Shown in pieces: positions 2,831-58,337 of a stretch of DNA of 64,000 nt. Location of the stretch: contig CM000430.1 of NCBI GenBank assembly GCA_000165345.1, forward strand, positions 320,001-384,000, read 5' to 3'. Numbering within the stretch: the first letter of the stretch is position 1; every line of letters begins with the position of its first letter. The translations under genes were made by a program, and so were the position numbers. The notes beneath the pieces are model-generated. The model ran no database searches and was not told the origin of the DNA. It saw only the letters and a list, made by a program, of their open reading frames with translations.

Positions 2831-5248
2831 ATGAAACAATCAATCGATAATGAATATGGAATAGATGAATTTAATAGATCACTAGATATTAGATTGAGAG
2901 GAACTATAAAGAAGTATTTTGAGGACTTCCATGTGCGTGAAATACAAAAAAATGGTGATGTTTGCTGTATTTCTTCATTAAGAAATAAACATGAGATAAT
3001 TAAGGAAATTCAAGAAAGAAAAAAGATACTTTCTGGAGATAATATGTTAATCAGCAGTAATGTAACTATAATACCTGAATTAATCAACAATCTAGAGAGC
3101 CTAGGAATATCTCAGTATTGTATTAACAATCTATTAACATTTATTAGTATTTTAGGTGAGATAAAAAAACTCACAAATAACAGCTCATTAGGCAATAGAA
3201 TGTTCAAATTGGATAATAGGGGAAACTTAAAAAGTATTTTTGAATTAAATATCAAGTTATATGGTACCGGCACTAACAATATTAGACCTGAGAATAATTT
3301 ATTACTTAATAATATACATGAGTTTAAAGACAACAAAGATTCAGTAAATGCCCAAAAAGAAAAGAGAAAAAAATTTCATACGCTAATAAAGAAATTTGTA
3401 CCGTTTATTACATCTCGAACTGTTGAAAACTTGAAAAACAACAACATTTTGTATCAAGATAAATCATTTCACTATAAAGATATTTCTATTTCGAATGAAA
3501 TATTTAGTGAAATTTCAAAGTTCTTTAAAGTTGATGAAATAGAATCTGAATGCCTTAAAAGTTTTAACCGGCAAATATTATGTAATGATTGTGATGAGAA
3601 ACAATTTGATATAATTGTTTTGAGGCCATCAAATGACTATATTTACTCATTGCGGAATGTTAGACAAAACACATCTGCAAGTATAGATGAATGCAAAGGT
3701 AATTCAGAAGCAAATGAAATAACACCGGATACTGAACCAGCTTGCAAAAAAAAAAGAATAGAATGTGCTGAATCAAACCTAATTACAGAAAAAAAAGTGG
3801 ATTTATTATTGGGAAGCAACGAAAGGTGGGATCCAAACATTCCAGATTATATTCATTTCACTATTTACAAAGAAAATAGAGACACAGCAGATGCAATCAA
3901 TATGATCTCAAAGTGTTTAAAGAGGAACCATAAATCCTTTGGAATAGCAGGCTTAAAGGATAGGAGAGGCATTACAGTGCAAAGAGCTTCTGCTTACAGA
4001 GTTTTGGAAGATCAATTAATTTATTCTACAGCTTCCAAAAATTGGGATCGCAATATTAGGATTTCAGATTTTAAATATGGAAATGAGCAAATAAATATTG
4101 GTGACCTCAATGGTAACCTCTTTCATGTAATAATTAGAGATTTAGAAATTTTAGATACAAATATACAAAAAGAATCTGGAAATGAAAAGTTAACATTGAA
4201 GATGGTTGACAAATTAATTGGCGATGTTAAATCTTCAGGTTTTATTAATTACTTTGGATTACAAAGATTTGGAACCAGTGAAATTCCTACATATAAGATT
4301 GGGATTTCATTATTAAAGAAGGAATGGAAAAAAGCTTTCTATTTAATTCTTGGATTTGACGAAGAAAAAATGATTAGCTATTCGACAGAAAAAAGAAAAT
4401 TCTATGACCAAATAATAAACGAAGATTTTGAAGAATATCAAAAAAGTCTATCAAATCATTCATATCTAGAGAAATTATTATTAAATGGATTTATTAAAGA
4501 AAAAAAGAAAATTAAAAGCAGCACTAAATGCAAAGCAAAGGAAGATATATATAGAGAAAGTATTAATTTACTACCAAAAAACTCTTATTCCCTTTATATA
4601 CATTCACTACAGTCGCTTTTTTTCAATATAGTTGCAAGCGAGAGAATAAAAAAATTTGGAAGAAATCCAGTAATTGGCGATCTAGTAATAGTTCCAAATT
4701 TAAATAAATATTCTAACAAAAATGAAGATTCAGCATTTAGCGAGAAAAATGTAATCGTATTAGAGAGCCAACTAGAATTGGCAAAGTTCACAATCCAAGA
4801 TGTGGTACTTACTTTACCCGGAGATAATGTTGCTTACCCACCAATCATGAGGGAAAAATATGAAGAACTAATGATGGAATTTATGGGAACAAGTATTCAA
4901 GAGAACTGCATGGGAATAAATGGTACCTATAGGAAGATCTTAGTAGTCCCAGACTATATCAATTATGTGGGGCTTAATATTTCTGAAAAACGAAATGATA
5001 CGAACAAATTTCCAGATTCCAAGGTTATTTTAAGCGACCTTGATATATTAACTATTCATCCCGAACTAACGCAAGAATTGGGAACAAAAGAACCCATATT
5101 ATCACCTGAAGTAATGAGTTACAAATGTGATGATAAAGATGAGAATTCGCAGGTGAACACATTAGTATTTTCATGCATGCTACCAAAATCATCTTATGTA
5201 ACAATGGCGTTGAGAGAGTTTTTGGGAAACTCTCCTTCAGAAAAGTAA
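2831..5248 (+). CDS. PUS7: tRNA pseudouridine synthase, TruD/Pus7 family
   Basis: Contains the TruD-family motif GLKDRRGITVQRAS (catalytic Asp in G-x-KD-x-R) and NYFGLQRFG. The long N-terminal extension and inserts are typical of eukaryotic Pus7. Confidence 0.85.
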   Translation: MKQSIDNEYGIDEFNRSLDIRLRGTIKKYFEDFHVREIQKNGDVCCISSLRNKHEIIKEIQERKKILSGDNMLISSNVTIIPELINNLESLGISQYCINNLLTFISILGEIKKLTNNSSLGNRMFKLDNRGNLKSIFELNIKLYGTGTNNIRPENNLLLNNIHEFKDNKDSVNAQKEKRKKFHTLIKKFVPFITSRTVENLKNNNILYQDKSFHYKDISISNEIFSEISKFFKVDEIESECLKSFNRQILCNDCDEKQFDIIVLRPSNDYIYSLRNVRQNTSASIDECKGNSEANEITPDTEPACKKKRIECAESNLITEKKVDLLLGSNERWDPNIPDYIHFTIYKENRDTADAINMISKCLKRNHKSFGIAGLKDRRGITVQRASAYRVLEDQLIYSTASKNWDRNIRISDFKYGNEQINIGDLNGNLFHVIIRDLEILDTNIQKESGNEKLTLKMVDKLIGDVKSSGFINYFGLQRFGTSEIPTYKIGISLLKKEWKKAFYLILGFDEEKMISYSTEKRKFYDQIINEDFEEYQKSLSNHSYLEKLLLNGFIKEKKKIKSSTKCKAKEDIYRESINLLPKNSYSLYIHSLQSLFFNIVASERIKKFGRNPVIGDLVIVPNLNKYSNKNEDSAFSEKNVIVLESQLELAKFTIQDVVLTLPGDNVAYPPIMREKYEELMMEFMGTSIQENCMGINGTYRKILVVPDYINYVGLNISEKRNDTNKFPDSKVILSDLDILTIHPELTQELGTKEPILSPEVMSYKCDDKDENSQVNTLVFSCMLPKSSYVTMALREFLGNSPSEK

Positions 5249-8627: not shown

Positions 8628-9083
8628 ATGGTCTCGTTTGTTTGTGGAAATTGCCAAGATGTACTAAAAAAGAATAAAGTAGATTCTCATTGCGTTGGGA
8701 AATGCCGTGATGCCTGGGAATTCACATGTATTGATTGCAATTTTACTTTCGAGGGCTTCGACTATAAAAGTCATAATAGTTGTATAACAGAAAAAGAAAA
8801 ATACTGTGGTAAATTGGCAAATATTAAGAAACCTGTTCATTATCCAGGAAATAGTTTTGTAGATCGAAAGAAGGAGTTTCAGCTTATTATTGAGAAAATA
8901 CTAAAAAAAAATGGATCTATGAACTGGAAAAAACTAGTCAAAGAATCAATTAAAGAATATATGAATAGCGGAATTAATGATAATATTGAAGATAAAATTC
9001 TTAAATGGGAGTGCCTTGCTGCAATTCCTATTTCCTATACAACGAGTGAATCAAATATGGTTTCATTCAAACAGTCATTTTAG
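8628..9083 (+). CDS. LYAR: LYAR-type C2HC zinc-finger nucleolar protein
   Basis: MVSFVCGNCQDVLKKNKVDSH...CIDCNFTFEGFDYKSHNSCITEKEKYCG is collinear with human LYAR MVFFTCNACGESVKKIQVEKH...CIDCGKDFWGDDYKNHVKCISEDQKYGG. At 151 aa it is shorter than metazoan LYAR. Confidence 0.8.
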   Translation: MVSFVCGNCQDVLKKNKVDSHCVGKCRDAWEFTCIDCNFTFEGFDYKSHNSCITEKEKYCGKLANIKKPVHYPGNSFVDRKKEFQLIIEKILKKNGSMNWKKLVKESIKEYMNSGINDNIEDKILKWECLAAIPISYTTSESNMVSFKQSF

Positions 9084-12575: not shown

Positions 12576-13496
12576 ATGCTTTCATTTCTTTCCAGTATTA
12601 ATGCGTGTAACTTGGAACTTTCAATTAATCAAGATGTGGGAAGAAAATCTGCGCCACTTAGTAAAAATAAAAAGGGTGAAAAAGGGTTAATTTTTAGTGA
12701 TGGTGAGGATATAAGTGGAGTTGCAATAGTAGCCATCAAACCGGGAAGGAAGTTGGATCATCAGGGTATCAGAGTTGAAGTAATTGGGCAAATTGATGTA
12801 ATTTATGACCAATCTTCTTCTTATGATTTTTTCTCTATCACTAAGGATTTGGAGCCTTCAGGGAGTTTATTTGAAACAAAACAATACAAATGGAAATTTA
12901 ATGCGGTCGATAAACCATACGAAACATACTATGGAACAAATATTCAATTGAGATATTTCGTAAGACTTACAGTTCTTAGAGCATACGCAAGCAATATTGT
13001 TAAGGAAGTCGACTTCGTTGTACAAAATTTAAGCAATGGCATCCCTAGTTCTATTTCTGAAAAAAACAAAATTCAAGACGGAATCAAAATGGAAGTTGGT
13101 GTAGAAGGGTGCTTACATATTGAACTTGAATACGATAAGTCTACTTATCATTTAAAAGATGTAGTTATTGGTAAAGTTTATTTCTCAATAGTACGGCTAA
13201 AAATAAAATATATGGAGATTGATATTATAAGACTTGAAACTTGCGGATCTGGACCAACAGCAATAACTGAAACTGAAGTACTTTCTAAATTTGAAATAAT
13301 GGATGGTGCGCCTGCGAAGCAGGAGACAATTCCTCTAAGAATGTACTTATGCGGTTGTGACCTGACACCTACATATAAGAATTTGCAAAATAAACTTTCG
13401 GTTAGATACTTTCTGAATTTAATTATTGTTGATGAAGAAGACAGGAGATACTTTAAAAGGCAAGAGATTACACTTTGGAGAAAAAAACTCGGATAA
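12576..13496 (+). CDS. VPS26: Vacuolar protein sorting 26 (retromer subunit)
   Basis: [38 protein letters not shown] matches Vps26 GETVSGKVNVTLKKPGKKLEHQGIKIEFIGQIELYYDRGN. The 306-aa size fits. Confidence 0.85.
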
Positions 13497-13960
13497 ACAT
13501 TTATTTTATACATTTTATATTATTAATCTTCTCAAAGATTATTTGAGTAATAAAAGCTAGCAAATAACCTGCATAATCAATTAATAAAGCTATTTTGGCA
13601 AATTAATTTAGGAGTAAAAACTGTTTTAACGTTCAAATTTGATTAATTTTAAACTTGTTAGATAAATTATCACTTTCATTAAATGAGATTCTGTTGGGCC
13701 AACTTAGATACCGCAAACTCTTTGAAGAGATGTACCACCTGATTATTGACTATAATTCTTTTTACATTGTGTTTATTTTCAAAGCCTAGTATAACTGTTA
13801 TTTTTTGACTTTATTTGTATAATATTTTCATCTGGAATTGAAAGATGTTAAATTTTATATGAAATTTAATTAAAACACTCAAACTTAGTGTTACGACTAA
13901 ATACTTTTATTGGCACATTGAGAAATTATATTGCTTTACTTTAGGCCTGAACTCGGAATT

Positions 13961-14326
13961 TTATTCTATTATTGTAATGTCAATAGTGTTTCGTCTTAGA
14001 GAATCCGGAAGATAATCAACTTTAGACTTATGGATCTGAAAGGATGGGGTTTGCCAATATCCGCAAGAGCACTTACCGCCAAACCAGCAATAATATCCCA
14101 ACTTTGAATCACAAGAACGATTTGGACAAGTTATCCTACCATTCTGCTCAGTATAGTCTTCCATCCATGAAGTATTTGAAATGAAGTATGATGTACATAA
14201 GTTATTTTCATCTTTAAGGTTGAATTCTTCGTTTCTTTCATTTAATTTGCCATGTTTAATAATATGATCTGTTGTAAATAACGTTGAACCACATTTCTTA
14301 CAGCGAAATACATACTTATTAGGCAT
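13961..14326 (-). CDS. Stand-alone zinc-ribbon protein resembling the C-terminal zinc-binding domain of YVH1/DUSP12 dual-specificity phosphatases
   Basis: YVFRCKKCGSTLF...CTSYFISNTSWME...ITCPNRSCDSKLGYYCWFGGKCSCGYWQTPSFQIHKSKVD matches the DUSP12 C-terminal domain as I recall it (LYRCRKCRRSLF...CTSYFIEPVQWME...CPKCSAKLGSFNWYGEQCSCGRWITPAFQIHKNRVD). No phosphatase domain is encoded within the 350 bp upstream. Confidence 0.55.
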   Translation of the reverse strand: MPNKYVFRCKKCGSTLFTTDHIIKHGKLNERNEEFNLKDENNLCTSYFISNTSWMEDYTEQNGRITCPNRSCDSKLGYYCWFGGKCSCGYWQTPSFQIHKSKVDYLPDSLRRNTIDITIIE

Positions 14327-14679
14327 GATATTATTTGCTATGATAACAACTAAATATATTAGATCAAAATAAAACGAAAATTATGATGGCTGTTCAAATA
14401 GATTAGATTTTAATTGTTGATTGCGCCAGGATTCAAAATGAAATTACACGCTTCAATCAGCATAATATTCTCATTTACCAACGTGTTATTAATAATTGCA
14501 TTAAAATTAAATTTACAAATTATTATATCTTTTTTTTCGCTTTTCCGAGATTATAAGGTATATTTTCCGCTGATTTTTTTTTTCGAAAGATAATAAAATT
14601 AGATTCAAAATAACTTAGTAGATTATAATACATAATAAATAAAAATAAATATTCAAGTCCCACTTAAATGTATTTGTGA

Positions 14680-16524
14680 ATGAATCTATATAATAACCCA
14701 CTTTTGGAGGTGCGCATTCCTCGTGTAGTAATAATTACTTTTGTTTTCATAATTTGGATTAGAAGAACAAATCAACAGGTAATTAATGCATGCACAATAG
14801 GAAATAATCCATGTACAGAAAATGCAGAATGCTATGTTGAGACTTTATTCATTGGCGCTCCCAAATGTAGATGCCCAAATGGTTTTCAGGGCGATGGATT
14901 AATAGGAGGCACTGGATGCCAGGATATTGATGAGTGCACAATGGGGATTCATACATGCGAGCCTAAAACTCAAAGGTGCATTAATACGATAGGGAGCTAT
15001 GAATGTGAGTGTCTGAGTGGTTTTAGAAAGCATGAACAACGTTTAAACGTGTGTGTTGATATTGATGAATGTATGGAATTAAGTGTTTGTCCTAGTTCCA
15101 CGTTGTGTATTAATACCGAAGGATCGTTTAAATGTGAATGTCTTGATAGAGAGCTAATATTTGATCAGGGAAGGTGCCGTCCCATCAATAAATGCACAGA
15201 TTTTAATGGAAGATTAAATGATTGTTCTCAAAATTGCGTTATGGGGAGTGACGGACGTGGAAAATGTGAATGTAACCCCGGATTTAAGTTGCATGAAGAT
15301 CGAAAAACATGTGTAGATATAAATGAATGCGAGGAAAATAACCCATGCGACCTTAGCATTTCGAGCTGTATAAATACCCCAGGTAGCTATATTTGTGACT
15401 GCTTTAAGTCTGCTGGGTATATGACATCCCCAATTAACAACAAAATATGCATTAATATAAATGAATGCGAGGAAGATCCAATGATATGTGGTGACCTAAA
15501 TATGTGTTGCAAAGATTTGGCTCCTCCAGACAAGTATGAATGCGTGTTTCCTAGTATTAATTCGGAAGTCATAAATAGAATCGACGTAAATAACCATTCA
15601 AAGGAGGGTATGAAAAATGTAGAAGGTGAACATAAAAATTTGGAAAACAACTCGAAATACATTCAAAATAATAAAATTTCAAGAAAATGGATTGAAACCA
15701 ATAAAGAATATGGTAATAATGCTGATTCGATTGAAAGTAATAATAATAGCGGTTGCTACGACTCAGATATTGAGTATCCAGGCTATACTATTCAAATTTT
15801 GCATTCATTAACAAGCGCATTTGATTGCCAATTACAATGCCAAGTAGACTTGGGATGTGACTTCTTCACCTATGATATGATGAATAGGGTATGTCTTTTT
15901 AAAGCAGCAAAGTCAGAACCAAAAGAATCTCCTGGGATGATTTCTGGTCCAAAGTATTGTAGTTATAAAAAGATAAACAAAAATAAGTTATTTCCGCTGG
16001 ATTCAGCTTCAAGCCAATCATCTCTTCTTCGTAGAATGTCTTCAAATAATAATTCAAATAAGTCAAATCAAATTTCTGACAACAAGTGTCCTCCTGGCTT
16101 TAACTTTGCATATGATATTTGGAGGAAACAAAAAAACAAAAAAACAATGGAAGTAATACAAAAACAATTTGGTACAAAACAGATGAATTCAATTAATCCC
16201 GTGGATATATCAGAAGGGTTGCAAAGCAATACTAATTTCATGGCAAACCAGATAAATCAATGGTATGATGTATTTTCAAACGTTCCAACCACATTTTCAA
16301 ACACAACAAAGCAGACAAATAAGCCTGTTCCCAAACTTGAATCATCCAACATTAATCCTGGATTTATTGCAGGAGGTATTCCTCCACCTCCAAGAGGTAC
16401 AAATTTTCCATACAATGAACATTACAAATTTAATCAATATCAAGACCAGAACAGTCAAATTCCTCATAAATATGGCCACAATACTCCCATATATGGAATG
16501 AAATCAGATAATTCAATTACGTGA
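14680..16524 (+). CDS. Secreted or type-I membrane protein with tandem calcium-binding EGF domains and a PAN/Apple domain
   Basis: N-terminal hydrophobic signal (VVIITFVFIIWI). At least 6 EGF repeats with DIDEC/DINEC Ca-binding starts. A PAN/Apple-like module follows (CYDSDIEYPGYTI...CQLQCQVDLGCDFFTYDMMNRVCLFK...YC). The C-terminal region is Asn/Gln/Pro-rich. Confidence 0.75.
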   Translation: MNLYNNPLLEVRIPRVVIITFVFIIWIRRTNQQVINACTIGNNPCTENAECYVETLFIGAPKCRCPNGFQGDGLIGGTGCQDIDECTMGIHTCEPKTQRCINTIGSYECECLSGFRKHEQRLNVCVDIDECMELSVCPSSTLCINTEGSFKCECLDRELIFDQGRCRPINKCTDFNGRLNDCSQNCVMGSDGRGKCECNPGFKLHEDRKTCVDINECEENNPCDLSISSCINTPGSYICDCFKSAGYMTSPINNKICININECEEDPMICGDLNMCCKDLAPPDKYECVFPSINSEVINRIDVNNHSKEGMKNVEGEHKNLENNSKYIQNNKISRKWIETNKEYGNNADSIESNNNSGCYDSDIEYPGYTIQILHSLTSAFDCQLQCQVDLGCDFFTYDMMNRVCLFKAAKSEPKESPGMISGPKYCSYKKINKNKLFPLDSASSQSSLLRRMSSNNNSNKSNQISDNKCPPGFNFAYDIWRKQKNKKTMEVIQKQFGTKQMNSINPVDISEGLQSNTNFMANQINQWYDVFSNVPTTFSNTTKQTNKPVPKLESSNINPGFIAGGIPPPPRGTNFPYNEHYKFNQYQDQNSQIPHKYGHNTPIYGMKSDNSIT

Positions 16525-16603: not shown

Positions 16604-19192
16604 CTAAACAATCGAGTATATAGTATCTCCAGCAATCATAAGTCTATTTTCTTCTTCTAAGATCCGTAAAACTTCCTTTATATCCTTGTTAGTGATCATG
16701 AAATTATTCCCTTTCTCTTTTGATTTTGAGATAATATTTTTTAATAGTTCCTCCTCGAGCATCGCTTCAAGGCCTGATTCAGAAAATTGTTCTGCAATAC
16801 ATGAAGTAATGAATTTTTTCTTAAAATCAGCTAGCTCAAAATCTCCATGGTCAGTATTGCTTCCTTCTCTAAGAATATTTGCTGCAGCAAGAGCAACTTG
16901 GTGGCCACGAGCAGCAGACTCTTTACGGTTAATTTTTTCCCTACTGGGAGTGACAATTGAACTTGGAGGAGGAGCAATAATGCTATGTTCATTTTCTTCT
17001 AGAAAATTTAACTCGGGAGTTTTGCTTGGATGATTTGATCTTTGGTACTTTTTTTCTTCTCTCCTTTTATTCCTTGAATTATCTTCCTGTTGTAGTTCGT
17101 TTTCGATATCTTTCTCAAATACTACATTAAGCAGACTCTCTTTTTCAATAACTTCTCCAAACATTGCATAGCTGAGCAATTCAAATGCAATCAACACGTC
17201 TTCTGGGATTACAGAATCTCTCATCTTTAATTTTGAGTGTGCTGTCGCTAATCTAATTATCCCTTCAAGTGTACGAGTTGTGCAAGTGGTGCCACCCTTG
17301 CTTTGATTCATGCACTTAGCCCTTAATTCGGTAAAAATTCTCGCTACTAGCTCAGCTGCTTCATCGGTTAATTTTGGGGTATTTCTAACATATTTACAAT
17401 AATGAATATATTTCCTTAAAAATGACGTTGTTAATACTTTATCTTCAGATGAACCCTTTGAGTTATTTTGAGATCTCTTATCTGCTATTTTATTAGATAG
17501 AGGTTGCCAAATATCGTTCATCTCATTTTTCTCATTTGAATCATTATCTTTGTACTCAGGCTGTATAACAAAATTATTGTTTGCCTTATTTATTCTTGTA
17601 TCATTTATTGATGAATTCTTATTATATCTAACTTGTGCAAGAACTTGTGCAGCGATTTTTCGATCTTGCTGAGAGTTTCTAGAATCTTTTACAATAAATA
17701 TTAAATCAAACCTTGACAATAAAGAATCAGGAAAAGCAATTTGCCTGCTAAGTTCCATAAAGTCATCAAAATGGCCATATACTGGGTTTGCAGCTGCAAA
17801 AATAGAACATCTTGCATTCAGAGAAGCCTGTATTCCTGCCTTAGCAATAGTAACTCTCTGTTGTTCCATAACTTCGTGGATTGCAACCCTATCTGAAAAA
17901 CTCATTTTATCAAATTCATCAATACATACTATTCCTCTATCTGCTAATACTGTTGCTCCAGCTTCTAGTCTTCTTTCCTTTGTATCTGGATCATGAGTAA
18001 CTGCCGCAGTTAAGCCTACTCCTGAACAGCCCCTTCCTGTGGTACTAATTGCCAACGGAGCAATTGACATAACGAATCTTAACAATTGAGATTTACCACA
18101 AGAAGGTTCTCCTATTAACAATGTATGTATATCGCCCCTGATATGTGTTCCATTTTCAAGATTATGTTCTGCACCCCCTAATATCCCCAGCAATAAGCCT
18201 TTTTTAATGTATTCATGCCCACAAAGGGAGGATGCAAATGATCTTGACAAAATCTCAAAAGCGTCATCTCTATTTGAAATCTCTTTCATTATTCTTATTT
18301 CTTGAGGAGTTAATTCAGGAGAAGTAACATTTTTATTTAGTAATTGAATATTATTTGCAACAATTACAACCTTAAAAATTCCAGTTATTGCATTGTTTTC
18401 TCGTCTTGAAATTGGTTTGTAGACCCCCACAATCTTAACTCTATCCCCAGGCTTAATTGTCTCAACCAAATCATCTTCTGCTATTATTTCAATGCTCCTA
18501 GGTAGCTGCCCAGTAGGTATCATTTCAGGCAACTCCTGTAGTGTCATTTTTTGGGTATCTTTATATCTGCATAAGCCTATTTCCACCTCCATTTTGTTAC
18601 CTTGTCCATCTTCTGATGGAACGCCACTCTGAATATAACGATCTTTTATTAAGCAAGAAATATCGCGATGCCCTCTAACTTCGACAAAAGCCTGATTTGC
18701 TCCACCTGAAATATCATTTTGACCAATTAAATGGCCTTTGGAAATATGGACAGATTTAACTAATTTCGGTTTAACAATAGAGCATTGCGAAATTATACCT
18801 TCAACACAAACCATTTTGTTAATATTACTTGCAGTAAGGCCACGCGGCGTCAGATGATTACGTCCAAACCAACCACTGAACCCAACCCTCGCATTAAATT
18901 GTGAAGATTTTAATGGCGAATTTTTATCAATCTCTCTTTCTAGATCCACTAAATCTTTAATTACCTCTTCAAATGGGGATACATACAAGTAAGGCTCATT
19001 GATAATTTTCTGGGGAAGTTCATCACTTATCTTCCTTAAATCACCTAATTCTATAAGAATACGCCCTGACTCTATATTTTCAACTGCCATTTGCTTGATT
19101 TTGGACGAATATTCGTCATTACCTTGCAAAAAACTTTTATATACTTGAATAAGTTGCTCAGAGAGCTCGCTGTCTGAAAGACTACTAAGCAT
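16604..19192 (-). CDS. MCM3: DNA replication licensing factor MCM3
   Basis: MCM box [53 protein letters not shown]...[12 protein letters not shown] is collinear with human MCM3 [53 protein letters not shown]...[12 protein letters not shown]. Walker A [11 protein letters not shown]. Acidic Ser-rich C-terminus. Confidence 0.85.
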   Translation of the reverse strand: [862 protein letters not shown]

Positions 19193-19558
19193 CTTTAATA
19201 GATAATTCTATTCAGAATGTACGCACCTAGAACTGATTCTGAGTAGAATAACTTTTTTGCCACTTAAAATACTAGCTTGTTATAAATTAAAAAAAACATG
19301 AAGTGTGGGGAATCTTAAGTAGGCGCCCGATACAAAGTCAGAGTTGAAAACGAAGTGTAAAAAAAAAAAAAATCTATGAATACAACACATAATTTTGAAG
19401 GCTAACTCGCATAACACTTTATTAGACAAACGGTTTAACCCTATTCTATTTAAATACACAGTTTACATTATTTTATTATTAAGTAATGGCGATCTCTAAT
19501 GCTGTAAATCTGCAATTTTAGCCAAATTAGCAACATTTGGTCGTAAATTATCAATATT

Positions 19559-21109
19559 TTATGTATCCAATTCTTCTATATCTTCTATCTCTTTCATATG
19601 TTTGCTTATATCTTTTCTTTTGAACATCTCTTTTACATCTGTGTTACATAGAATTTGCTTATATATTGGTCCTATTGGATTATATTTAAAAGAATCAACC
19701 AGCCACGGATGTTTTAGTGCTTGCTGGCAAGATTGAATTCTTTTCTTTGGATCCCATTGTAAGAGCCTTATACATAGGTCTTGTGCTAAAGGAAAATCAG
19801 GTAAAGGCGGCGCGTCGAATTGAAATCCTCCTTGATCACTTATTACCTTTAGCACTTCCAAAGCTTTAGGGTAATCGCACATTAAGTCAATCCTAAGTGG
19901 AGGAATTCCTGTCATTAGTATATAGAGTATTATCCCTATACTCCATAGGTCTGAAGCTGCAGAATATTCACCTCCATTTAATACTTCGGGGGCAAGATAA
20001 CCGAATGTGCCAACTAGCCTCTTCTTCATCCTAATCATTTGTACGTGCGGTTTGCTATCCATTAGCTCGCAAGTGTCAAAATCAACCAGTACAACCTCAA
20101 AATACTCCTTAGAAGACTTTAATGAAAGGTGAGCAATACTTTCCTCTTTGCTTTTTATTTCTTGTCCTAATTTGTCATCGGTCCCTTCAAAAGTAGAAAA
20201 TGATGATGCTGACATTGGAGAATATGGTTTTTCCTCTCTTCTTTTGTATCTGAACATAATATTTTCAGGTTTTACATCACGATGAAGCATCTTTAAGCAA
20301 TGTAAATGGTTCACACTTTCTAATATTTGTCTAATAATATATTTACAAGTTTCTTCCGGAATAGCTTGCTCTGTAATTAAAAATTGAAAAAGTTCTCCGC
20401 CTTCCAAGCCTTCCATTACCAGATAAAAATTTTCCTCATCTTCAAGAACTTGGTAAATTTTCATTACATTAGGATGATATGGTAAATTTAATAATTTCAA
20501 ACATAGTTTTTTCCAAATTGAATAACTTCCGGGAAATGATGACATAATTCTAGTTTTTTTAACTACTTTTATAACAACTGGAAATCCTGTTGCAATATGC
20601 TTTGCCCAATAAAGTTTTGGACGATTATTATTCTCTCTTTCTGGGTTTCCATTCCCACTCACAGCGTTATCAGATTTATCTTGCGATCTTTTGTTGCTAT
20701 TAATTTTTGAAATTATTAAAAAATAGTCGTCTATTCTTACACCCAGTTTTGTTAAGTTAGCATAGCAGCCAAGGAGAGTATCAGGAGTAACATCAGAATA
20801 ATCTTTTTTATCAGAGCTTTTGATTGAGGAAATTTCATGTTCATGAATACGTTTAGTCTTTAGTCCCTTATTTATTATGGATTCATATTCATTTGATTCG
20901 ATTGACCTTTTTCGTGAAAAAGCTTTATCAGTATGAAACTTTTGATTTATACCATCTAGTAGCAATAAAAGTGGTTTCTCCTCACTTGTTACATATTTAT
21001 TGGATTCCTGGCAAGCACTAATGTTACTTCCGAAGTTATCATTAGTAAACAGGAATTTGTTATCTTTTAGTGCAAATGAGTTATTCCCCGAACCATTGCA
21101 TTTGGACAT
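19559..21109 (-). CDS. Ser/Thr protein kinase with a divergent N-lobe
   Basis: HRDVKPENIMF catalytic loop, VVIKVV (VAIK-like), GTFGYLAPEV activation segment, DLWSIGIILY. It has DFD where DFG is expected and no clear GxGxxG loop. About 190 aa of low-complexity N-terminal extension. Confidence 0.75.
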   Translation of the reverse strand: MSKCNGSGNNSFALKDNKFLFTNDNFGSNISACQESNKYVTSEEKPLLLLLDGINQKFHTDKAFSRKRSIESNEYESIINKGLKTKRIHEHEISSIKSSDKKDYSDVTPDTLLGCYANLTKLGVRIDDYFLIISKINSNKRSQDKSDNAVSGNGNPERENNNRPKLYWAKHIATGFPVVIKVVKKTRIMSSFPGSYSIWKKLCLKLLNLPYHPNVMKIYQVLEDEENFYLVMEGLEGGELFQFLITEQAIPEETCKYIIRQILESVNHLHCLKMLHRDVKPENIMFRYKRREEKPYSPMSASSFSTFEGTDDKLGQEIKSKEESIAHLSLKSSKEYFEVVLVDFDTCELMDSKPHVQMIRMKKRLVGTFGYLAPEVLNGGEYSAASDLWSIGIILYILMTGIPPLRIDLMCDYPKALEVLKVISDQGGFQFDAPPLPDFPLAQDLCIRLLQWDPKKRIQSCQQALKHPWLVDSFKYNPIGPIYKQILCNTDVKEMFKRKDISKHMKEIEDIEELDT

Positions 21110-21694: not shown

Positions 21695-22453
21695 ATGAAT
21701 ATTAATAAAAATGAGGTGAGTCTTTCACCTTTAAATAGTTTATCAACCCAGTTAGATTCTAATACTAATAAGGAAAACCACTTTGATGTAAAAAATCAGA
21801 AGCCACAGTGCATAAGTGATAATACTGAAGCAAACATAAAACACGAAGATTTTGAGAAGTCTAATATAAAGAAAAAATATAAAAAAAATCTTATTTGGGA
21901 TGGCCCAAGGTGGGATCTGGCACATTTTGATCCGACAATGAGTGCAAGAGAAAGGAAAAAACTTGTTTATTATGAGGCTCTGTTCAACAAACTTGAGAAT
22001 GATGTAGTGTTGAGATGCAACGAACACAATAATAAAAATGTGAAAAATCCAAACCAGAAGAGGAAAATGCGTAATAACACTTTAGACTCAAGTCCCAAAA
22101 CAGAATTGAGCGATTTGAAGGGAATGAAAGAACATAAAAGCGATATTGATTCAGGAGATAGTTCTAAATCAGATAACTATAGCAAGGCTAATCAAGAAAA
22201 GTTTGTAAATTCTCACAATTCTAATCAAATTGGTATTTTGTTAACTCCTGATAGAAGTTTTTCACGAAGTGAAAACATTATATCGCCAATTTTAGAGGAG
22301 CCTAGAAAGTGTAGTAGATCGAATGCAAATAGTCAAACGCCAGCAAATGAAAGGGAAAATAGTAGCATTCGAAGATCCAATGATTGGAGAGTAAAATTAT
22401 TGAATAAAAGATGTTCTCTCCAAGCTACACCTTATAGAGGAGCAACTCCATAA
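21695..22453 (+). CDS. Hypothetical low-complexity (Asn/Ser/Lys-rich) protein
   Basis: Open frame of 252 codons from the first ATG. The ORF-track start at 21668 is a TTG. No recognisable domain. Basic, probably nuclear. Confidence 0.35.
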   Translation: MNINKNEVSLSPLNSLSTQLDSNTNKENHFDVKNQKPQCISDNTEANIKHEDFEKSNIKKKYKKNLIWDGPRWDLAHFDPTMSARERKKLVYYEALFNKLENDVVLRCNEHNNKNVKNPNQKRKMRNNTLDSSPKTELSDLKGMKEHKSDIDSGDSSKSDNYSKANQEKFVNSHNSNQIGILLTPDRSFSRSENIISPILEEPRKCSRSNANSQTPANERENSSIRRSNDWRVKLLNKRCSLQATPYRGATP

Positions 22454-22958
22454 AAGCAATTTTTATCAATTGCATATTTGGCTCTCTTAGTTATAAGTGC
22501 ATTTATATCCTATATATAGCTTAATTTGTTTTAATATTTCATATGAAAATTAAAGTTGTATCTTTACCAAACAGTTGAAATTTTTAATAATTTCAATATC
22601 TACGGCTCATTATAATTTTCTTTAACCCGACTAAGATTACTTTAGGAAGTTCTTAGTTATTGTAAACGGTTTAGATCGGCCTCATTCACTAGATTTTAAA
22701 GAATGAAATGAACGCAACGAAAGTTGGGATTTTTGCTCTTGCATAAAATAAATGTTTAAAATAGAAATTTTTAATTTACATAATAAAGAAGAATCTTCAA
22801 AGTTAATGGATTTTTTATTTATTTAAATAAAATATATGCTTTATTTCAATTTAATATATTCAAAGAAGATTCGATTTTGTTCAAAATTCGTGACTCATTT
22901 CATACAAGGAATAGTAGCCATATTTTCGCGGTATAGATTTTAAACAAATAGATAAACA

Positions 22959-23718
22959 ATGTACTATAACAATGAAGAGTTAGAGATGTTTATGAAAAGA
23001 GCGATTGAACTAGTAGGTAAAGCTAATATCTTTGTAAAGCTGTAATAATTTATTATTTTTAGTCAGAATTTGCAGTAAAAAGTAACGAAGTCCCTGTTGG
23101 TTGCGTTATTGTAAATAGAACCACAAAGGAAATTGAATCTGAAGCTCACAACGAAACTAATATATCGAGAAACGTAAGCTATAGAAACTATAAATTAAGT
23201 AAATAAACATATATTACTCAGGGAACTAGACACTGTGAAATTGTTGCTTTAGAAAAATTAATAGTTAAGTTAAAGAGTACTAGTGGAAAAATAAATAATT
23301 CAACTCGACTGATTACTCAAAATCAAGATGAATACAGTAACACAAGATTTAGGATTAATCTAGGGGATATTTATGACTTATTCGTAACTGTGGAGCCTTG
23401 TATTATGTGTATTGGATTTATCGACCAGATGGGTAAGTTTCCATTTAAAGTGACTCCTTTTTTTTTTTAAATAATTTAGGAATACATAATATATTTTATG
23501 GATGTAAAAACTATCGCTTTGGTGGTTGCGGATCTGTATTGGACTACCATCATTTAAATAAAAGCTCCAAAATCATCTTAACTTCCGGAATCTGTGAAAA
23601 TGAATCAATTAAAATACTAAAAGAGTTTTATGAAATTGGGAACCCAAAAGCTCCAGAAAATAAGAGAAAAAGGCCACTAAAAGCATTAAATTGCACATTA
23701 CCATTGTACAAAAGTTAA
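22959..23718 (+). CDS. TAD2: tRNA-specific adenosine deaminase subunit TAD2/ADAT2 (CDA fold). Four exons: join(22959..23012,23063..23173,23222..23432,23480..23718).
   Basis: Not in the ORF track. Exon 2 SEFAVKSNEVPVGCVIVNRTTKEIESEAHNETNISRN. Exon 3 GTRHCEIVALEKL...DLFVTVEPCIMCIGFIDQMG (HAE-type and PCxxC zinc motifs). Exon 4 IHNIFYGCKNYRFGGCGSVLDYHHL... (human ADAT2: VVYGCQNERFGGCGSVL). Introns of 50, 48 and 47 nt with GTAGGT/GTAAGC/GTAAGT donors and TAG/CAG/TAG acceptors. Phases are consistent (0, 0, 1). An alternative exon-1 donor at 23034 would give a 29-nt intron. Confidence 0.7.
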
Positions 23719-23727
23719 TTATATTTT

Positions 23728-26094
23728 CTAAAATGCAGTTAGATTTACAGGTCTGCCATTAAGATTCATTATTCTTGCAGGTGTAATTGGCTTCTCGTCC
23801 GTATTCACAAGTCTAGTGCTGCTTTTTGGGCTTAGAGAATAATTGAATGTGCTACTACTATTCGGAGTTTTCATTGTTACCGAATTGAGTGCGTAGCTTT
23901 TTTTATTAGGTAATTCTCTAAACTGACAATTTTCACCTTTAGACTTTTCAAATTTGGTATTAAATTTGTCACTAAAGTTGTTTTGCTTTAATTCAGAATT
24001 AATCTGATCAAACCACCCGAAAGAATTATCTATGGTTTGATACTTAATTATTTGATTGTATTGGATCAATTGGTTGTCAAGGCATCTTGTAATAACTAAT
24101 ACAGCAGCATCATTGCAAAAATTGTTGCAAAAATTGGTTGCAGAATTTAAAGAGACAACTCTGCCATTTGCGTTATATCCATATCCTCTTTTGCAGTAGT
24201 CGTTTGTTTTTACTATTAGCTTTATTGAGTTTGTATTCATAAAGTCTTCAACGTCATAAGAATCATAGCAATACATATTTTTTTCAAAAATTTCGGCATC
24301 TCTTGTGTGTTCTACATCCGTCTCATTTATAAAATTATGAGAGTCATCAGAACTTGTTTGATCTATCATTTCTGACCAAAGACATTCAAACACGTATCTA
24401 TCACTCTCAGATAATCTATTATTACAATCACTTTTGTTTATTAATTCTGATTTTACGTGGATTGGCTTGGGGATACCTGATAAATTTTCAACACTTTTAA
24501 TACTTTTACCAATTCCTGAATGTAGACATAACACTTGATCATCAATCAACGCAGAAATCGAAAAAAATTCAAAGGCATCATTAATCCTTTCCCAAATAGC
24601 CTCACCATTTATTCCAAATTTCTGCTTACATTCAAAATGAAATCCATAAGTCAAGTTAACTGATGCATCTTCATGGTTGCCACGCAATAAAAATATCTTA
24701 TCAGGAAACATTATCTTTAGAGAAAAGAGTATAGAAATGACCTCTAACGAAAACTTTCCTCCATCAACATAGTCTCCCAAGAAAACATATTTCATCGATA
24801 ATATGTCCCCTCTATGGAAATGAGGCCATGAGAATTGTTCGAAAAAATACAATAGGTCAATTAGCTGCCCATGAATGCCTCCAAAAATTCTAACAGAGTT
24901 ATTTCCCTTTATTTTAATCAGACTATCCTCACCTCTGATAATTTGCACAGCTCGATCACACAAATCCATTATTTCTGAGCAATTTAATATGTTGTTTATA
25001 TACATTTTTTCTTCAAAATCAGATTTATTTTCAGAGTTTGTTAAAATATTCATATAGTATTCTATTACTCGCTGTTCCAAAGAACTAAATGCCTGATTTT
25101 GGAAATTGTAAGGGAATAAATCCAATATACCTTTAGAATTTAGTTTTATGTCATTTTGGACTTTACCAGCCTCAAAGGAAAGTTTATTGAGTCTGCTATT
25201 CATATTTGTTTGTTCTGCGAGTGCAGAAGTCAATTTTAACCCAGCTAACTCCGTATGCTGAACTTGCTCCAAATTTTGATCAAAGGTGCTTTTGAGGCAA
25301 TTTTTTGAAGAAAAATTTGATATAAATGACCCATGTTTATTAATATCATTATTTGAACTATATTCAGCATTAATATTGTCGTTGATAAAATCCACCAAAT
25401 CTAGATGAGTTCGCAATAGCCAGCCTGTTCCTTTTAAGATATTATTTTTCACAGAATTATAAAATGCATTAAAACCAAATACTCCATCGTAATGAGCAAT
25501 TAAATGAATAGCATATTCTCTTGCTTTAGACTCGCTCATTGATATTGTTTTTTTAGCTAATGATCTGATGGAAGAAATATGAATAATCATTCTTTTTAAT
25601 TCATTTAAGTTAAGGAGGCCATTCCTATCTGTGTCATAATAGAGGAAGATAAATTGTAATCTAAGCTGCCCAATACTAGTTTTAGGATCATTTTTCGCTA
25701 AAGGACTTAAACTTAACATTCCTGATGTAAATTCAACTTCACTAACAATACCATCTTGGTTTCGGTCCATGAGGTTATAAAATACAGTTCTATATTGCTC
25801 GTCTGTAATTGGGTTATCATTTAATATATTCAAAAACTCGTCCTGTGTTAAGTAGCCGTTTTTTCTTTTCCCGTATTTAGAAACAATGTCACGTAGTATT
25901 GAATATCTCTCTTGCCAGCCCATTTCTAATATAGCTTCATCCATAAGCCTGCTAAAACTTTTCCAGGGGTGCCACTGCTCTGGACGAATAACTTTGGAAG
26001 AGATTCTTTCAGCATTCTTAGCGCCTGCGTGAAAATCAGTGTTTGCAAATTTAGAGTTGAGAATATTAGGCCCATAAATTGAAGAGACTTCCAT
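23728..26094 (-). CDS. EF-hand-containing PPP-family Ser/Thr protein phosphatase (EFPP-like), with substitutions in catalytic motifs
   Basis: N-terminal EF-hand loops (DRNQDGIVSEVEF, DTDRNGLLNLNEL) precede a calcineurin-like phosphoesterase core FLGDYVDGGKFSLEVISILFSLKIMFPDKIFLLRGNHE. Motif 1 reads GGIHGQ where GDxHG is expected. Motif 2 reads GDYVDGG where GDxVDRG is expected. Both were checked at nucleotide level. Confidence 0.8.
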   Translation of the reverse strand: MEVSSIYGPNILNSKFANTDFHAGAKNAERISSKVIRPEQWHPWKSFSRLMDEAILEMGWQERYSILRDIVSKYGKRKNGYLTQDEFLNILNDNPITDEQYRTVFYNLMDRNQDGIVSEVEFTSGMLSLSPLAKNDPKTSIGQLRLQFIFLYYDTDRNGLLNLNELKRMIIHISSIRSLAKKTISMSESKAREYAIHLIAHYDGVFGFNAFYNSVKNNILKGTGWLLRTHLDLVDFINDNINAEYSSNNDINKHGSFISNFSSKNCLKSTFDQNLEQVQHTELAGLKLTSALAEQTNMNSRLNKLSFEAGKVQNDIKLNSKGILDLFPYNFQNQAFSSLEQRVIEYYMNILTNSENKSDFEEKMYINNILNCSEIMDLCDRAVQIIRGEDSLIKIKGNNSVRIFGGIHGQLIDLLYFFEQFSWPHFHRGDILSMKYVFLGDYVDGGKFSLEVISILFSLKIMFPDKIFLLRGNHEDASVNLTYGFHFECKQKFGINGEAIWERINDAFEFFSISALIDDQVLCLHSGIGKSIKSVENLSGIPKPIHVKSELINKSDCNNRLSESDRYVFECLWSEMIDQTSSDDSHNFINETDVEHTRDAEIFEKNMYCYDSYDVEDFMNTNSIKLIVKTNDYCKRGYGYNANGRVVSLNSATNFCNNFCNDAAVLVITRCLDNQLIQYNQIIKYQTIDNSFGWFDQINSELKQNNFSDKFNTKFEKSKGENCQFRELPNKKSYALNSVTMKTPNSSSTFNYSLSPKSSTRLVNTDEKPITPARIMNLNGRPVNLTAF

Positions 26095-42903: not shown

Positions 42904-42988
42904 GCGTAGATGCCCGAGTCGGTCTAAGGGGCCAGACTTAAGATCTGGTGTACACATGTACTCCAGGGTTCGAATCCCTGTCTACGCA
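42904..42988 (+). tRNA. tRNA-Leu (anticodon UAA), with a long variable arm
   Basis: Acceptor stem GCGTAGA/TCTACGC plus discriminator A. D-arm CCCGAGTCGGTCTAAGGGG. Anticodon stem-loop CCAGA-CTTAAGA-TCTGG. Variable arm TGTACACATGTACT. T-arm CAGGG-TTCGAAT-CCCTG. No CCA encoded. No intron. Confidence 0.85.
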
Positions 42989-52900: not shown

Positions 52901-53946
<1,046 letters not shown>

Positions 53947-54241
53947 TTATTACTTCAATATGTTAAATTTAAAGATAAATTACAAAAAAGAAAAAAAATG
54001 TTGAGAAGTGGTTATTTTAAAATTGACTTTTCTCCCCATCAAAATTTTTAGACAATACCGGTAATTTGACTTAAATTAATTGTTTAATACGAAAAAACAA
54101 TTTAGGTTAACAATTAAATGATATACGTAGATATAGTATTTAACTCATTCTTTTCTATTATAGTGAATAAACTAAACTTTAATATTTTGGGCTATTATTT
54201 TACTGATTGTTTGCCCTGAAATGGCAAAATTTGATACTAAG

Positions 54242-55229
54242 CTAGTCTGATTTTGAGAGTATTCTATTCCTTAAAGTTTCTATAACTTTTTCATTTGCTG
54301 CAACAAAATATGGATTAATTAGAACTTCTTTATTGTAGGTAAGTGGTTCCCCTAGTTTGAACTGGGTTTCTGATCCAGAAAAAAATGTTTCAAGCTTGTA
54401 AATATCACCGCAAGTTTGCCGTATAATAATATGGCTCGCACAAGTGTCCCATTCCATACAGTCATGAAACCTTGGATAGATATCAGCACGACTTTCAATA
54501 AGTTCAATAAATTTAATCGATGATCCGAATGGAATTTTAATATTGTTTTGGAAGAATTTCTCTGAGAATAAGTCTAAAATGGGGCATTTATAATTATGAG
54601 ATTTTAGTATTCTAATCACTCCATTATTGGGAAATGGTTTATTTGATTTGGGGATAAATTCAAGTGAGGTTTTGCCACAAATTACGTTAGAAGAATTTAA
54701 TGTAGCAATTTTATAAGCTCCTCCTAAATTATTAAACGAAAAAAATGATATTCCAGTATTTGGAATCGATACAACTCCAAGGGTTGGTTTGCCATTTTCA
54801 CAAAGTCCAATATTCACAGTGAATTCACCGTTTCGCCTCAAAAATTCTTTTGTACCATCAAGAGGATCAATGAGCCAACAAATCCTGAAAAAAATTAAAT
54901 TTTTTAGTTTAGTTTACAATAACTTACTTATACTTTTGCCTATTTTCCCAAGTATCAGTTTCCGATTCTTCTGAAATTATTGGTATTTGCGGCCACTTTG
55001 AAGAGAGTTTAGCACAAATGATTTCATTCGCATTTAAATCTGCTGTTGTGACTGGAGAGTTATCTTTATCCTTGTAATTAATTCTTAGTTCCGCATCAAT
55101 ATTTTTGTAAATTTCCATAATAACTTTGCTAGCAAGAAACCCAATTTCGACAACCTCCCTAGCAGAAATGACCACTTTACTGTCTAAATTAGTTTCGTAA
55201 CACAATTTATTAAATTCATCTAAGCTCAT
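54242..55229 (-). CDS. 3'(2'),5'-bisphosphate nucleotidase / inositol monophosphatase family (HAL2/BPNT1-like). Two exons: complement(join(54242..54884,54928..55229)).
   Basis: Exon 1 ...INYKDKDNSPVTTADLNANEII... matches Hal2 ITKNDNSPVTTGDYAAQTII. Donor TATAA|GTAAGT, 43-nt intron, acceptor TTTCAG. Exon 2 starts (K)ICWLIDPLDGTKEFLRRNGEFTVNIGL (W-x-DPLDGTKEF metal-binding motif). C-terminal MEWDTCASHIII. The ORF track splits it into two ORFs, the second starting on a TTG. Confidence 0.8.
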
Positions 55230-55294
55230 TTTTAACTATTTAATAAAAGAAAGCGCGATTAAAGAATAATTATAATGAAAGTAAAATGAGTTAA

Positions 55295-56004
55295 TTATTC
55301 CAAAAATAACAAATAAATCATAATAACTATTCCAACAAAAAGTGAAAAGTTAGATATTAACTTATTTCTAAGTTCTTCATCTGAAGAAGCGTAATGATTA
55401 TAATGTATTTGAGTGAAAACTTACTGTTGTCTGATTGTCTGCTATTTGCAAATTCGGGAATGAAGTAACGATGGGTGTAACCCAAGCTCAAAAGAGCACC
55501 TAAAGGATTTGCGAACACCGTTATTAGTGGAGTATTATTAATTCCAAACCCAAAATCTGCATTGTGAAAATATCCATTATGCCCCCCAATATTTTGATTA
55601 CGTTGTCTAGCCTCCGGCCTTTCAGCCTTCGGTCTTGGCTTTGTTTTTTTTCTAGGATCAACATTTTCATTACCTCTACCGTATAATGGAATTACATTCT
55701 CTGAATTAACTCCAGCCTTGCAAACTGGGCAGTCTTCATAACCTCTATCTAGCCAGGAACAAATACAGCTCCAACAATACTGGAATGAGTTAGTTTACAA
55801 TGATGTATATAGTTAAGAACTTACTAGGTGACCACATCTTGTCACGATAGGCTCATATGCATTTTCAAAACAAATATTGCATTCAAAACTAGTATAGTTT
55901 TTTGACTTCTCTTCAGATCTATGATGGTGATCAGACTGTTCTCCGTTCAATCCGCTGCCTTTTGCGTCAATCTCACTATTTGAAATGTTATTTACCTCTC
56001 CCAT
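55295..56004 (-). CDS. RNF5: RNF5/RMA1-type membrane-anchored RING E3 ubiquitin ligase. Three exons: complement(join(55295..55380,55425..55779,55825..56004)).
   Basis: Exon 1 ends ...FECNICFENAYEPIVTRCGHL|GTAAGT. Exon 2 [36 protein letters not shown]... is collinear with RNF5 [38 protein letters not shown]. Exon 3 encodes the C-terminal TM anchor FSLFVGIVIMIYLLFLE*. Introns are 45 and 44 nt. Phases 0 and 1 are consistent. Confidence 0.8.
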
Positions 56005-56308
56005 AAAACCTACAAATTTGTAATAATTAATTGATTGAATTTTCTTACATATTTTCTAATATTAATCTATTAATAATTAAATAGAATGTTTGTGGCGGGT
56101 TGGTACTTGCTCTACTTTGTCACTAAATAAAATAATTCAAAATATAATCTGGTGCATACAGCTTAATAGAGTAAAACTCTCTAACCGATTAATTTTATGC
56201 ATAGTTTTCGTCACGTATATGAACATAGAATAATAATGTAGATGATTATTTAGAAGTTGAGTTCCCGCCCACACGTGTCAATTGTTTTGATTTGTTATAT
56301 ATGAAATA

Positions 56309-56356
56309 TTTAAATAAATAAATATAAATATAAATATAAGTATAAATATATATATT
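56309..56356. repeat. Imperfect (AAATA/TAAATA)n microsatellite in the divergent RNF5/NDR-kinase promoter
   Basis: taaataaataaatataaatataaatataagtataaatatatatat. Confidence 0.85.
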
Positions 56357-56706
56357 CGTTATTGAAGTTGAAATTAGCATTCTATATCCGCATTCCTTTG
56401 TTCAAGGCATGTATTTGTTACTGATGCTTGTATTTTAAATATTCTTTCCTCCATCTTTTCCTTTTTTGTTGAGCAGTATTAATTAAAATCTAATTCTTTA
56501 AAAGTATTAAACTTGTGCACTCGCGTTAAAATTAATTACATTGATAAATCCAATAATACTTTGTATTTATTTTATTGAAATTTTTAAAGATTCTTACATG
56601 TATTGTTTCCAAGTGGACGTACACTTATGTATGCATATTACATAAGCGATATAATATTTGAAGTAGTTTATTATATTGAGAGAAATTTCAAAGTTATACA
56701 ATAGTA

Positions 56707-58337
56707 ATGAACAATAATTCAAAAAGGTAGGTAAATAATTTGCTTAAATATAAAAGATACTTTAAAATAAACATAACAAATATTAATGTTTTTTTTTGGA
56801 TTTTTAACAGGGCTCTAAAGTTAAACCTTCTTGATAACATTGAAAATCTTAAACAAAGCGTGTTGCTGAATAAGGCATCAATAGAGACAAATTATTTGGA
56901 AAGATGCGAGAAAGCAACAAAACATTGCATTACTAAAAATAATCACAAAGATGAGAATGAGGATAACTTAAGGCTGTTGTAAGTTAGGAAGGAGCTTTTA
57001 AAATAAACTTTCATTCAATAATAGGAGAAAAAGAGTTTCAATTAAGGATTTTAAAATTCTAAGCCCAATTGGCGCGGGAGCATTTGGTATAATTAGACTT
57101 GCGGAATGCAGGAACACAGGCAGCATTTATGCGCTAAAGCAAATGAGAAAAAGTATTATCAGAACAAAAAATCAGCTTGAAAGGATATACAATGAGAGAG
57201 CACTCCTGGCTCAAAATGCATCCGACTTTGTTGTAAAGTTATTTTACACATTTCAAGATGATAAACACTTATACCAAGTAATGGAGTATTTGCCTGGAGG
57301 GGACTTGATGTCATATTTAATAAAATATGATAAATTTAGTGAAGAAGACACTAGATTCTACATGGCGCAATTGGTTCATGCCGTTGATTTAGTTCATCAG
57401 TTAGGGTTTGTACACAGAGATGTAAAACCAGATAACATTGTTCTTGATTCTAAGGGGCATCTCAAATTATTAGATTTTGGGCTTTGCAAGTTTTCTCCAC
57501 TAATTGAAGGAGACGAAAATAGAGAATACCAAACAGAAAATCATTTAAGATGTGTCAATTTAAACGCTAAATCACATAAAGATAGTAATAAAGCTTCTGA
57601 AATTTCCTTTAATGAGAACAACGAAAACAAAAGAATTAACAAAGAACTTTATCGAGGATCAAATTTACTAGAAGAAAAGAATTGCCAAAATGAAGATTTA
57701 AATACTTCTCTGAAGCATTTGGACAGAAAGACAATTCATTCTACTGTAGGAACCCCACAGTATATGGCACCAGAAATATTTCTCAGACAAGGGTATACAC
57801 ATCTTGTAGATTGGTGGAGCGTGGGAATACTGATGTATGAATGTCTTTATGGAGGAGTACCATTTAATGATGATACGCATAACCCAATTAAAGTCGCAAT
57901 AAAAGTAATGCAGTGGGAAAAGTTATTATTACTCCCACATCCATGTAGAAAAATTTCGCCCGAAGCACTAGATCTACTAAAAAATTTATTGTGCCATCCT
58001 TCAAAAAGGTTTGATGGTGAACAGATTAAAAAGCATCCTTTTTTCAATGGTAAGTTTATAAATTTCGGTTAGTTTATTGAATTTATAACTTATGATAGAA
58101 ATTGATTGGGATAAATTAAGACAATGCCCTGCTCCATTCAACAAACAGATTAATGAGAATATATATAAAAGCAATGTTACGGCAGCAGAACTAATTGATG
58201 AGTCTCCAAACAACACAAGATATGGTGTTCAGGGTTCTTCACTAGTTGATATAAATTTCTTGGATTATACTTATAGGAATAAAGATCGTAATAATGATCC
58301 TATATCAATAGGAGAGGCCATTAAAATGTGCGGATGA
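56707..58337 (+). CDS. NDR/LATS-family (AGC) Ser/Thr protein kinase. Four exons: join(56707..56726,56811..56978,57025..58049,58099..58337).
   Basis: Exon 1 is MNNNSK followed by GTAGGT. Exon 2 is ...LERCEKATKHCITK...EDNLRLL. Exon 3 is RKRVSIKDFKILSPIGAGAFGIIRLAECRNTGSIYALKQMRKS...HRDVKPDNIVLDSKGHLKLLDFGLC...TVGTPQYMAPE..., collinear with human NDR1 [47 protein letters not shown]...[25 protein letters not shown]...TVGTPDYIAPE. It has the NDR-type activation-segment insert. Exon 4 (E)IDWDKLRQCPAPF...FLDYTYRNKDR matches VDWEHIRERPAAI...FINYTYKRFEG. All junctions are phase-consistent and the RLL|RKR junction is supported by homology. Confidence 0.8.

Follow-up and report, generated by a model that had tools for sequence, protein, structure and literature searches.

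What is encoded at positions 22959 to 23718 of a 64,000-nucleotide (nt) stretch of the Cryptosporidium parvum genome, just short of a convergent phosphatase gene, where a bacterial-style list of open reading frames (ORFs) reports nothing? The stretch, hereafter the window, comes from GenBank assembly GCA_000165345.1 (contig CM000430.1, positions 320,001 to 384,000 of the forward strand) and has a G+C content of 30.7%. The original prediction had placed a four-exon TAD2/ADAT2 deaminase gene in this interval. Our analysis suggests that the interval is very probably the nuclear gene for ADAT2/Tad2, the catalytic subunit of the C. parvum tRNA adenosine-34 deaminase, whose four exons encode a 204-amino acid (aa) enzyme of the cytidine deaminase (CDA) fold.

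To define the gene model, three-frame translation, the bacterial-style ORF list (60-aa default) and joining of exons at GT-AG boundaries were used on the gene interval. The results showed that deaminase-like segments occur in alternating frames and that every exon hits stop codons when read through. The longest uninterrupted ORF within 22959-23718 is 59 aa long (23539-23718), which falls below the 60-aa default and explains why the gene was missed by the ORF list. Joining four exons across three GT..AG introns afforded a coding sequence (CDS) of 615 nt and 204 aa on the plus strand, with an in-frame stop preceding its start codon ATG at 22959-22961. Exon 1 (22959-23012, 54 nt, codons 1-18, MYYNNEELEMFMKRAIEL) and exon 2 (23063-23173, 111 nt, codons 19-55, containing EVPVGCVIV and N48) both end in phase 0 and are separated by intron 1 (23013-23062, 50 nt, GTAGGT...TTTTTAG). 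Intron 2 (23174-23221, 48 nt, GTAAGC...ACTCAG) leads to exon 3 (23222-23432, 211 nt), which carries H59-C60-E61, an insert at about residues 80-105 and P114-C115-x-x-C118, and ends in phase 1. Intron 3 (23433-23479, 47 nt, GTAAGT...poly-T...ATTTAG) is followed by exon 4 (23480-23718, 239 nt), comprising RFGGCGSV, the C-terminal helix, K187-R188-K189-R190 and the stop codon TAA at 23716-23718. The introns have a G+C content of 21-22%. The exon lengths sum in frame (54 + 111 + 211 + 239 = 615 nt), so that the phase bookkeeping closes at this stop, and the CDA motifs are spread over three exons, exon 2 contributing VPVGCVIV, exon 3 both HCEIVAL and TVEPCIMC, and exon 4 FGGCGSVL. Every point made by the original prediction was borne out by these results. 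An exhaustive GT-AG search for exon sets yielding the annotated 204-aa protein returned one solution only.

Comparison with public records showed that the deaminase gene, its exon structure and its neighbour are already present in public C. parvum annotations; it is an ordinary housekeeping gene. Four chromosome-scale C. parvum contigs encode the 204-aa product, with the same four-exon model in the four annotations, and it is identical residue for residue to QOY43070.1, WKS76458.1, WRK30952.1 and KAL5369956.1. In the two places where it is shown, the annotated gene covers 760 or 761 nt, 760 nt being the span found here, and stands 9 nt from the phosphatase gene. An older Iowa II record gives a 186-aa 'partial' product without exon 1. 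The window is identical to C. parvum GCA_031892065.1 (CP029781.1, 992,414 bp; at about 350 kb) over 12959-14958, over 17959-19958 and over the gene itself. The QOY accession presumably belongs to the IOWA-ATCC re-annotation. According to the paper describing that re-annotation, 100% of its introns are supported by RNA-seq (PMC8744675). Our literature search found no publication on Cryptosporidium ADAT2, Tad2 or Tad3.

To assess the conservation of the gene model, orthologous loci of C. muris, C. ubiquitum, C. bovis, C. hominis, C. meleagridis, C. felis and C. ryanae were compared with that of C. parvum, giving eight species in total. The gene order common to all is MCM, kinase, an unknown protein of about 250 aa, the deaminase (+), the EF-hand phosphatase (-) and OST48. 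Three introns were found in all eight species at the same alignment columns (44, 81 and 177) and in the same phases (0, 0 and 1). Exon 2 is 111 nt long in every species, and exon 1 is 54 nt in all those mapped, including C. felis after correction of its start codon. The annotated C. felis deaminase starts 11 codons short, the conserved MSYNVEELRYF standing in frame directly upstream (positions 3968-4000 of that locus).

The exon-1 donor had been flagged as the least certain part of the model, since both GTAGGT at 23013 and GTAAAG at 23034 are candidates and both are in frame. If exon 1 were spliced at GTAAAG instead, 21 nt would be added and a 29-nt GT..AG intron left, and the product would be a 211-aa protein with seven additional residues (VGKANIF). 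However, the GT at 23013 is kept in all eight Cryptosporidium species, whereas the GT of 23034 reads AG in C. hominis and GG in C. meleagridis. An intron of 29 nt would also be shorter than all 24 introns mapped in the deaminase gene across the genus (range 41-165 nt), and use of the 23034 donor would break the 16-residue helix-1 spacing from the FM/WM dipeptide (residues 11-12) to EVPVGC that is common to human ADAT2. The 211-aa product was absent from the databases searched, in which the 204-aa product is present. Splicing at 23034 is thus very improbable, and the donor at 23013 is upheld by conservation, spacing and databases alike.

The pattern of substitutions also bears on whether the interval is a decaying pseudogene whose exon-like pieces merely mimic a gene. 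Such a reading could appeal to the three interruptions within 760 nt and to the report that gene and intron loss together with intron shortening explain much of Cryptosporidium genome reduction (PMC8744675). Nevertheless, splicing restores a perfect frame, and all interruptions are bounded by GT..AG and lie at the same codon position in the eight species. Relative to C. hominis and C. meleagridis, indels are confined to introns or flanks. Relative to C. ubiquitum, the exons hold a single gap column, at the end of exon 4, the stop of that species coming 4 codons earlier, and the exonic substitutions are biased to third positions (33 at first, 25 at second and 75 at third codon positions). The catalytic residues are all intact. 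We therefore give the pseudogene reading next to no probability; the conservation pattern is, as judged from the aligned sequences, the signature of a spliced gene under purifying selection. Intron 3 is the only intron varying in length (+7 nt in C. hominis and -6 nt in C. meleagridis in the comparison with these two species), and within C. parvum, the poly-T tract of this intron (about 23469) is one T longer in assembly GCA_048859185.1, leaving the protein unchanged. At the other end of the gene, C. hominis has TGA (about positions 4741-4743 of its locus) for the C. parvum TGC at 23692-23694, and its deaminase is 196 instead of 204 aa long. Because this nonsense codon drops the last 8 residues, the deaminase C-terminus past the KR motif appears dispensable.

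To determine which member of the CDA superfamily the gene encodes, the spliced product was examined by domain search, comparison with solved structures and structure prediction. Pfam assigned it to dCMP_cyt_deam_1 (PF00383; E = 2.5e-17), with a further match to MafB19-deam. Among solved structures, the best matches were human ADAT2 (E = 4.9e-28, 101.5 bits) and mouse ADAT2 (97.8 bits), followed by yeast Tad2 (79.5 bits), Trypanosoma brucei ADAT2 (72.9 bits), bacterial TadA (63 bits at most) and ADAT3 (22 bits). By these structure-sequence scores, ADAT2/Tad2 chains stand closest to the deaminase, ahead of TadA, ADAT3 and other enzymes of the CDA family. With its 204-aa identity to annotated proteins and this score against human ADAT2, the match of the spliced product is far beyond chance. 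The AlphaFold2 model has a CDA fold (predicted local distance difference test, pLDDT, 86; predicted TM-score, pTM, 0.82), with disorder at about residues 80-105 and in the tail, and the top Foldseek matches to this model are mouse and human ADAT2, with target-normalised TM-scores of 0.82-0.86.

Motif analysis pointed in the same direction. An alignment with 57 homologues showed H59, E61, P114, C115, C118, F139, G140 and G141 to be invariant, and the zinc ligands and the catalytic Glu are intact (H(A/C)E ... PCxxC), as in the active subunit. The ADAT2-type segment R138-F139-G140-G141-C142-G143-S144 is present, as are N48 and V112. At the C-terminus, NPKAPENKRKRPLK (residues 180-193) is kept across Cryptosporidium and aligns with ADAT2 C-termini, K187-R188-K189-R190 corresponding to the KR motif. 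In common with ADAT2/Tad2p of human (PDB 3dh1), mouse (7nz7), yeast (7bv5) and T. brucei (8aw3), the protein thus has the CDA fold, the H-x-E/PCxxC site, RFGGCGS and, at the C-terminus, a helix that precedes a Pro and a KRKR motif; identity is about 35-47% to the aligned ADAT2-like homologues and 31-32% to the human and mouse ADAT2 structures (Foldseek). It differs from them in having HCE rather than HAE, and in about 25 extra residues inserted behind the helix that comes after HCE. This insert, encoded by exon 3, is of low confidence in the model (low pLDDT at residues 80-105), varies in length among Cryptosporidium and is mostly absent from non-Cryptosporidium homologues. The replacement of HAE by HCE was considered as a possible oddity and rejected: of the 57 closest homologues, 24, Vitrella among them, have C at position 60 and the other 33 have A, so HCE is an ordinary protist variant.

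These comparisons also decide between ADAT2 and its relatives. Were the product a generic deaminase of cytidine, dCMP or another nucleotide, or a homodimer of the TadA type, this would agree with the Pfam matches, which are to generic CDA families, and with the public product names, most of which are generic. However, ADAT2 scores about 40 bits above bacterial TadA, guanine deaminases are marginal (E of about 5e-4 to 9e-4), yeast cytosine deaminase is found only among the fold matches of lower rank, and both the ADAT2-specific RFGGCGS and the C-terminal KR extension, the latter absent in TadA (PMC9643335), are present. We accordingly regard this alternative as having very little probability. 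Bacterial TadA (PDB 1z3a and 2b3j) shares the fold and active-site chemistry and likewise acts on A34 of tRNA, but it is a homodimer without the KR extension and has GAxGS for FGGCGS; a bacterial-type TadA of this short form was ruled out by the KR extension and by the lower TadA scores. The inactive ADAT3/Tad3 subunit, recognised by replacement of the catalytic Glu (a pseudo-active-site Val) and by a large N-terminal tRNA-binding domain, was ruled out as well, since E61 is present, 26 residues stand before EVPVGC, and the match to mouse ADAT3 is marginal (E = 8.5e-4). The gene is therefore assigned to ADAT2/Tad2 on its sequence and predicted fold.

In the cryo-electron microscopy structure of the T. 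brucei ADAT2/3-tRNA complex, a His and two Cys bind zinc and a Glu is catalytic, Asn, Val and Phe (N79, V133 and F160) hold A34, and an Arg is part of the gate; the C-terminal KR motif, which is essential, binds the anticodon stem (PMC9643335). By homology, H59, C115 and C118 of the C. parvum protein would bind the catalytic zinc and E61 would shuttle the proton, while the flipped-out A34 would be held by N48, V112 and F139, with R138 as the gate arginine, and the flexible C-terminal KRKR motif would bind the anticodon stem. Paired with an ADAT3/Tad3 subunit whose gene would lie elsewhere, the deaminase would convert A34 to inosine in tRNAs with ANN anticodons, and one such tRNA could then read codons ending in U, C or A. 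Both the enzymatic activity and the heterodimer with ADAT3 are predicted from what is known of the family. An Rfam scan of the whole window gave a single match, to the only tRNA found in it, tRNA-Leu(UAA) at 42904-42988 on the plus strand.

Several observations weigh against the assignment or its details. The public product names are mostly of the generic type 'cytidine and deoxycytidylate deaminase family', the name 'tRNA-specific adenosine deaminase 2' being carried by one C. hominis record and by no other. Neither an ADAT3 partner nor an A34 tRNA gene was found within the 64-kb window, and the lists of the 120 best protein matches were saturated with ADAT2 orthologues. The splice junctions and 3′ ends are drawn from annotation, comparative evidence and the literature, and the canonical AATAAA is absent within 400 nt downstream of the stop of the deaminase or of the phosphatase on both strands, so that poly(A) sites and 3′ ends cannot be placed by this signal.

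The positions of the introns can be followed outside the genus. The ADAT2 gene of the fish Denticeps clupeoides (positions 501-2574 of the locus analysed) has five introns, of which introns 1-3 occupy the same alignment columns and phases as all three Cryptosporidium introns, and the two further 3′ introns are absent in Cryptosporidium. The chance of three coincidences out of three among about 590 positions is roughly 3e-7, a rough figure that any preference for proto-splice sites would raise. The aligned genes are most simply explained by retention of ancestral introns, the two 3′-most having probably been lost in Cryptosporidium. Intron loss in intron-poor lineages is 3′-biased, and the loss of the two 3′-most introns fits this pattern. 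The orthologue of the chromerid Vitrella is intronless in the genome and is thus uninformative on intron continuity within alveolates.

On the other side of the deaminase stop lies the convergent gene, which the original prediction had described as an EFPP phosphatase ORF ending at 23728. The results bore out both its position and its identity. Its single-exon CDS (23728-26094, minus strand) encodes a 788-aa EF-hand-containing calcineurin-like Ser/Thr phosphatase, with Metallophos and N-terminal EF-hands recognised by Pfam, and is equal to XP_626384.1/EAK88809.1. Its stop codon TAG occupies 23728-23730 on the minus strand, so that the spacer measured between the convergent stops is 9 nt (23719-23727, TTATATTTT); C. 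hominis has this spacer unchanged, and C. meleagridis and C. ubiquitum carry nearly the same sequence. All eight species have the deaminase convergent with this same phosphatase, the stop-to-stop gap being 8 nt in C. meleagridis, 9 in C. parvum, 18 in C. felis, 20 in C. ubiquitum, 32 in C. bovis, 33 in C. hominis, 35 in C. ryanae and 76 in C. muris. The larger C. hominis gap arises only because the TGC-to-TGA change cuts its deaminase by 8 residues.

The stop-to-stop geometry makes it very likely that the mRNAs of the deaminase and the phosphatase overlap in their 3′ untranslated regions (UTRs), because otherwise both 3′ UTRs together must be 9 nt or less; the overlap drawn from this gap by the original prediction is thus soundly reasoned. 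The 3′ ends of both mRNAs would then run into each other's coding regions. Such an overlap is consistent with published Cryptosporidium annotation work, in which UTR overlap is frequent in the compact C. parvum genome (PMC12179316), and a study of C. parvum long non-coding RNAs found antisense transcription to be pervasive and intergenic distances to average 504 bp (PMC7840661). The arrangement resembles the tail-to-tail cis-natural antisense pairs of Cryptosporidium, Theileria and microsporidia, in which the stops lie closer than any plausible pair of 3′ UTRs; here the likeness is one of geometry. When Logan assemblies were queried with the phosphatase protein, the contigs retrieved were long and genomic.

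Whether the overlap is a selected sense-antisense regulatory pair, acting in either direction through transcriptional interference or an RNA duplex, was considered in the light of its conservation. The pairing in all eight species with gaps of just 8 to 76 nt speaks for it, as do the junction TAATTATATTT(T/C)CTAAAA, kept out to C. ubiquitum despite the moved deaminase stop, and the stage-specific antisense transcription that is widespread in C. parvum (PMC7840661). On the other hand, gene-order conservation is general in the genus cluster, with 87-99% synteny (PMC8744675), the conserved junction is mostly explained by the last codons of both proteins, and the gap length drifts between species over the range just given. 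Other convergent pairs of long ORFs in the window have gaps of 35 nt (5248/5284) and 79 nt (16524/16604), which implies that tight tail-to-tail packing is general in the window and not special to this pair. A selected regulatory pair is in our view unlikely. The overlap reads instead as a passive outcome of genome compaction, not as a dedicated regulatory device. That the genus-wide 3′ overlap could be a functional sense-antisense coupling of wobble-inosine tRNA supply to a calcium-regulated phosphatase is a decidedly unlikely extension of the same idea. To our knowledge, C. parvum lacks RNA interference. Elsewhere in the window, an apparent 9-nt convergent overlap at 9075-9083 involves a 151-aa ORF of uncertain reality.

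Upstream of the deaminase, a conserved TTTTCGCGG box (22923-22931, plus strand) lies 28-36 nt before the ATG and is a candidate promoter element. C. hominis, C. meleagridis and C. ubiquitum all retain its TTCGCGG, while identity in the remaining 5′ flank goes down to 58%, and the box occurs once in the window against 0.17 occurrences expected. C. bovis, C. ryanae and C. muris lack it. We tentatively suggest that the box may be an E2F-like promoter element. The upstream neighbour (21695-22453, plus strand) encodes 252 aa with no Pfam match, and its position is kept in all eight species (240-284 aa). Farther away, 53744-57142 is a 3.4-kb region without an ORF of at least 150 aa, unusually long for this compact genome, which may hold a multi-exon gene or a non-coding RNA.

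Taken as a whole, the finding has little import beyond the rebuilding of a split eukaryotic gene from raw sequence by the original prediction. Other eukaryotes depend on ADAT2 as an essential housekeeping enzyme, which makes it a conceivable drug target, and nothing sets the Cryptosporidium copy apart. It is of modest evolutionary interest that an intron-poor genome keeps three introns at vertebrate ADAT2 positions 1-3, and the 9-nt distance between the two stops illustrates how strongly genome compaction forces transcript overlap.

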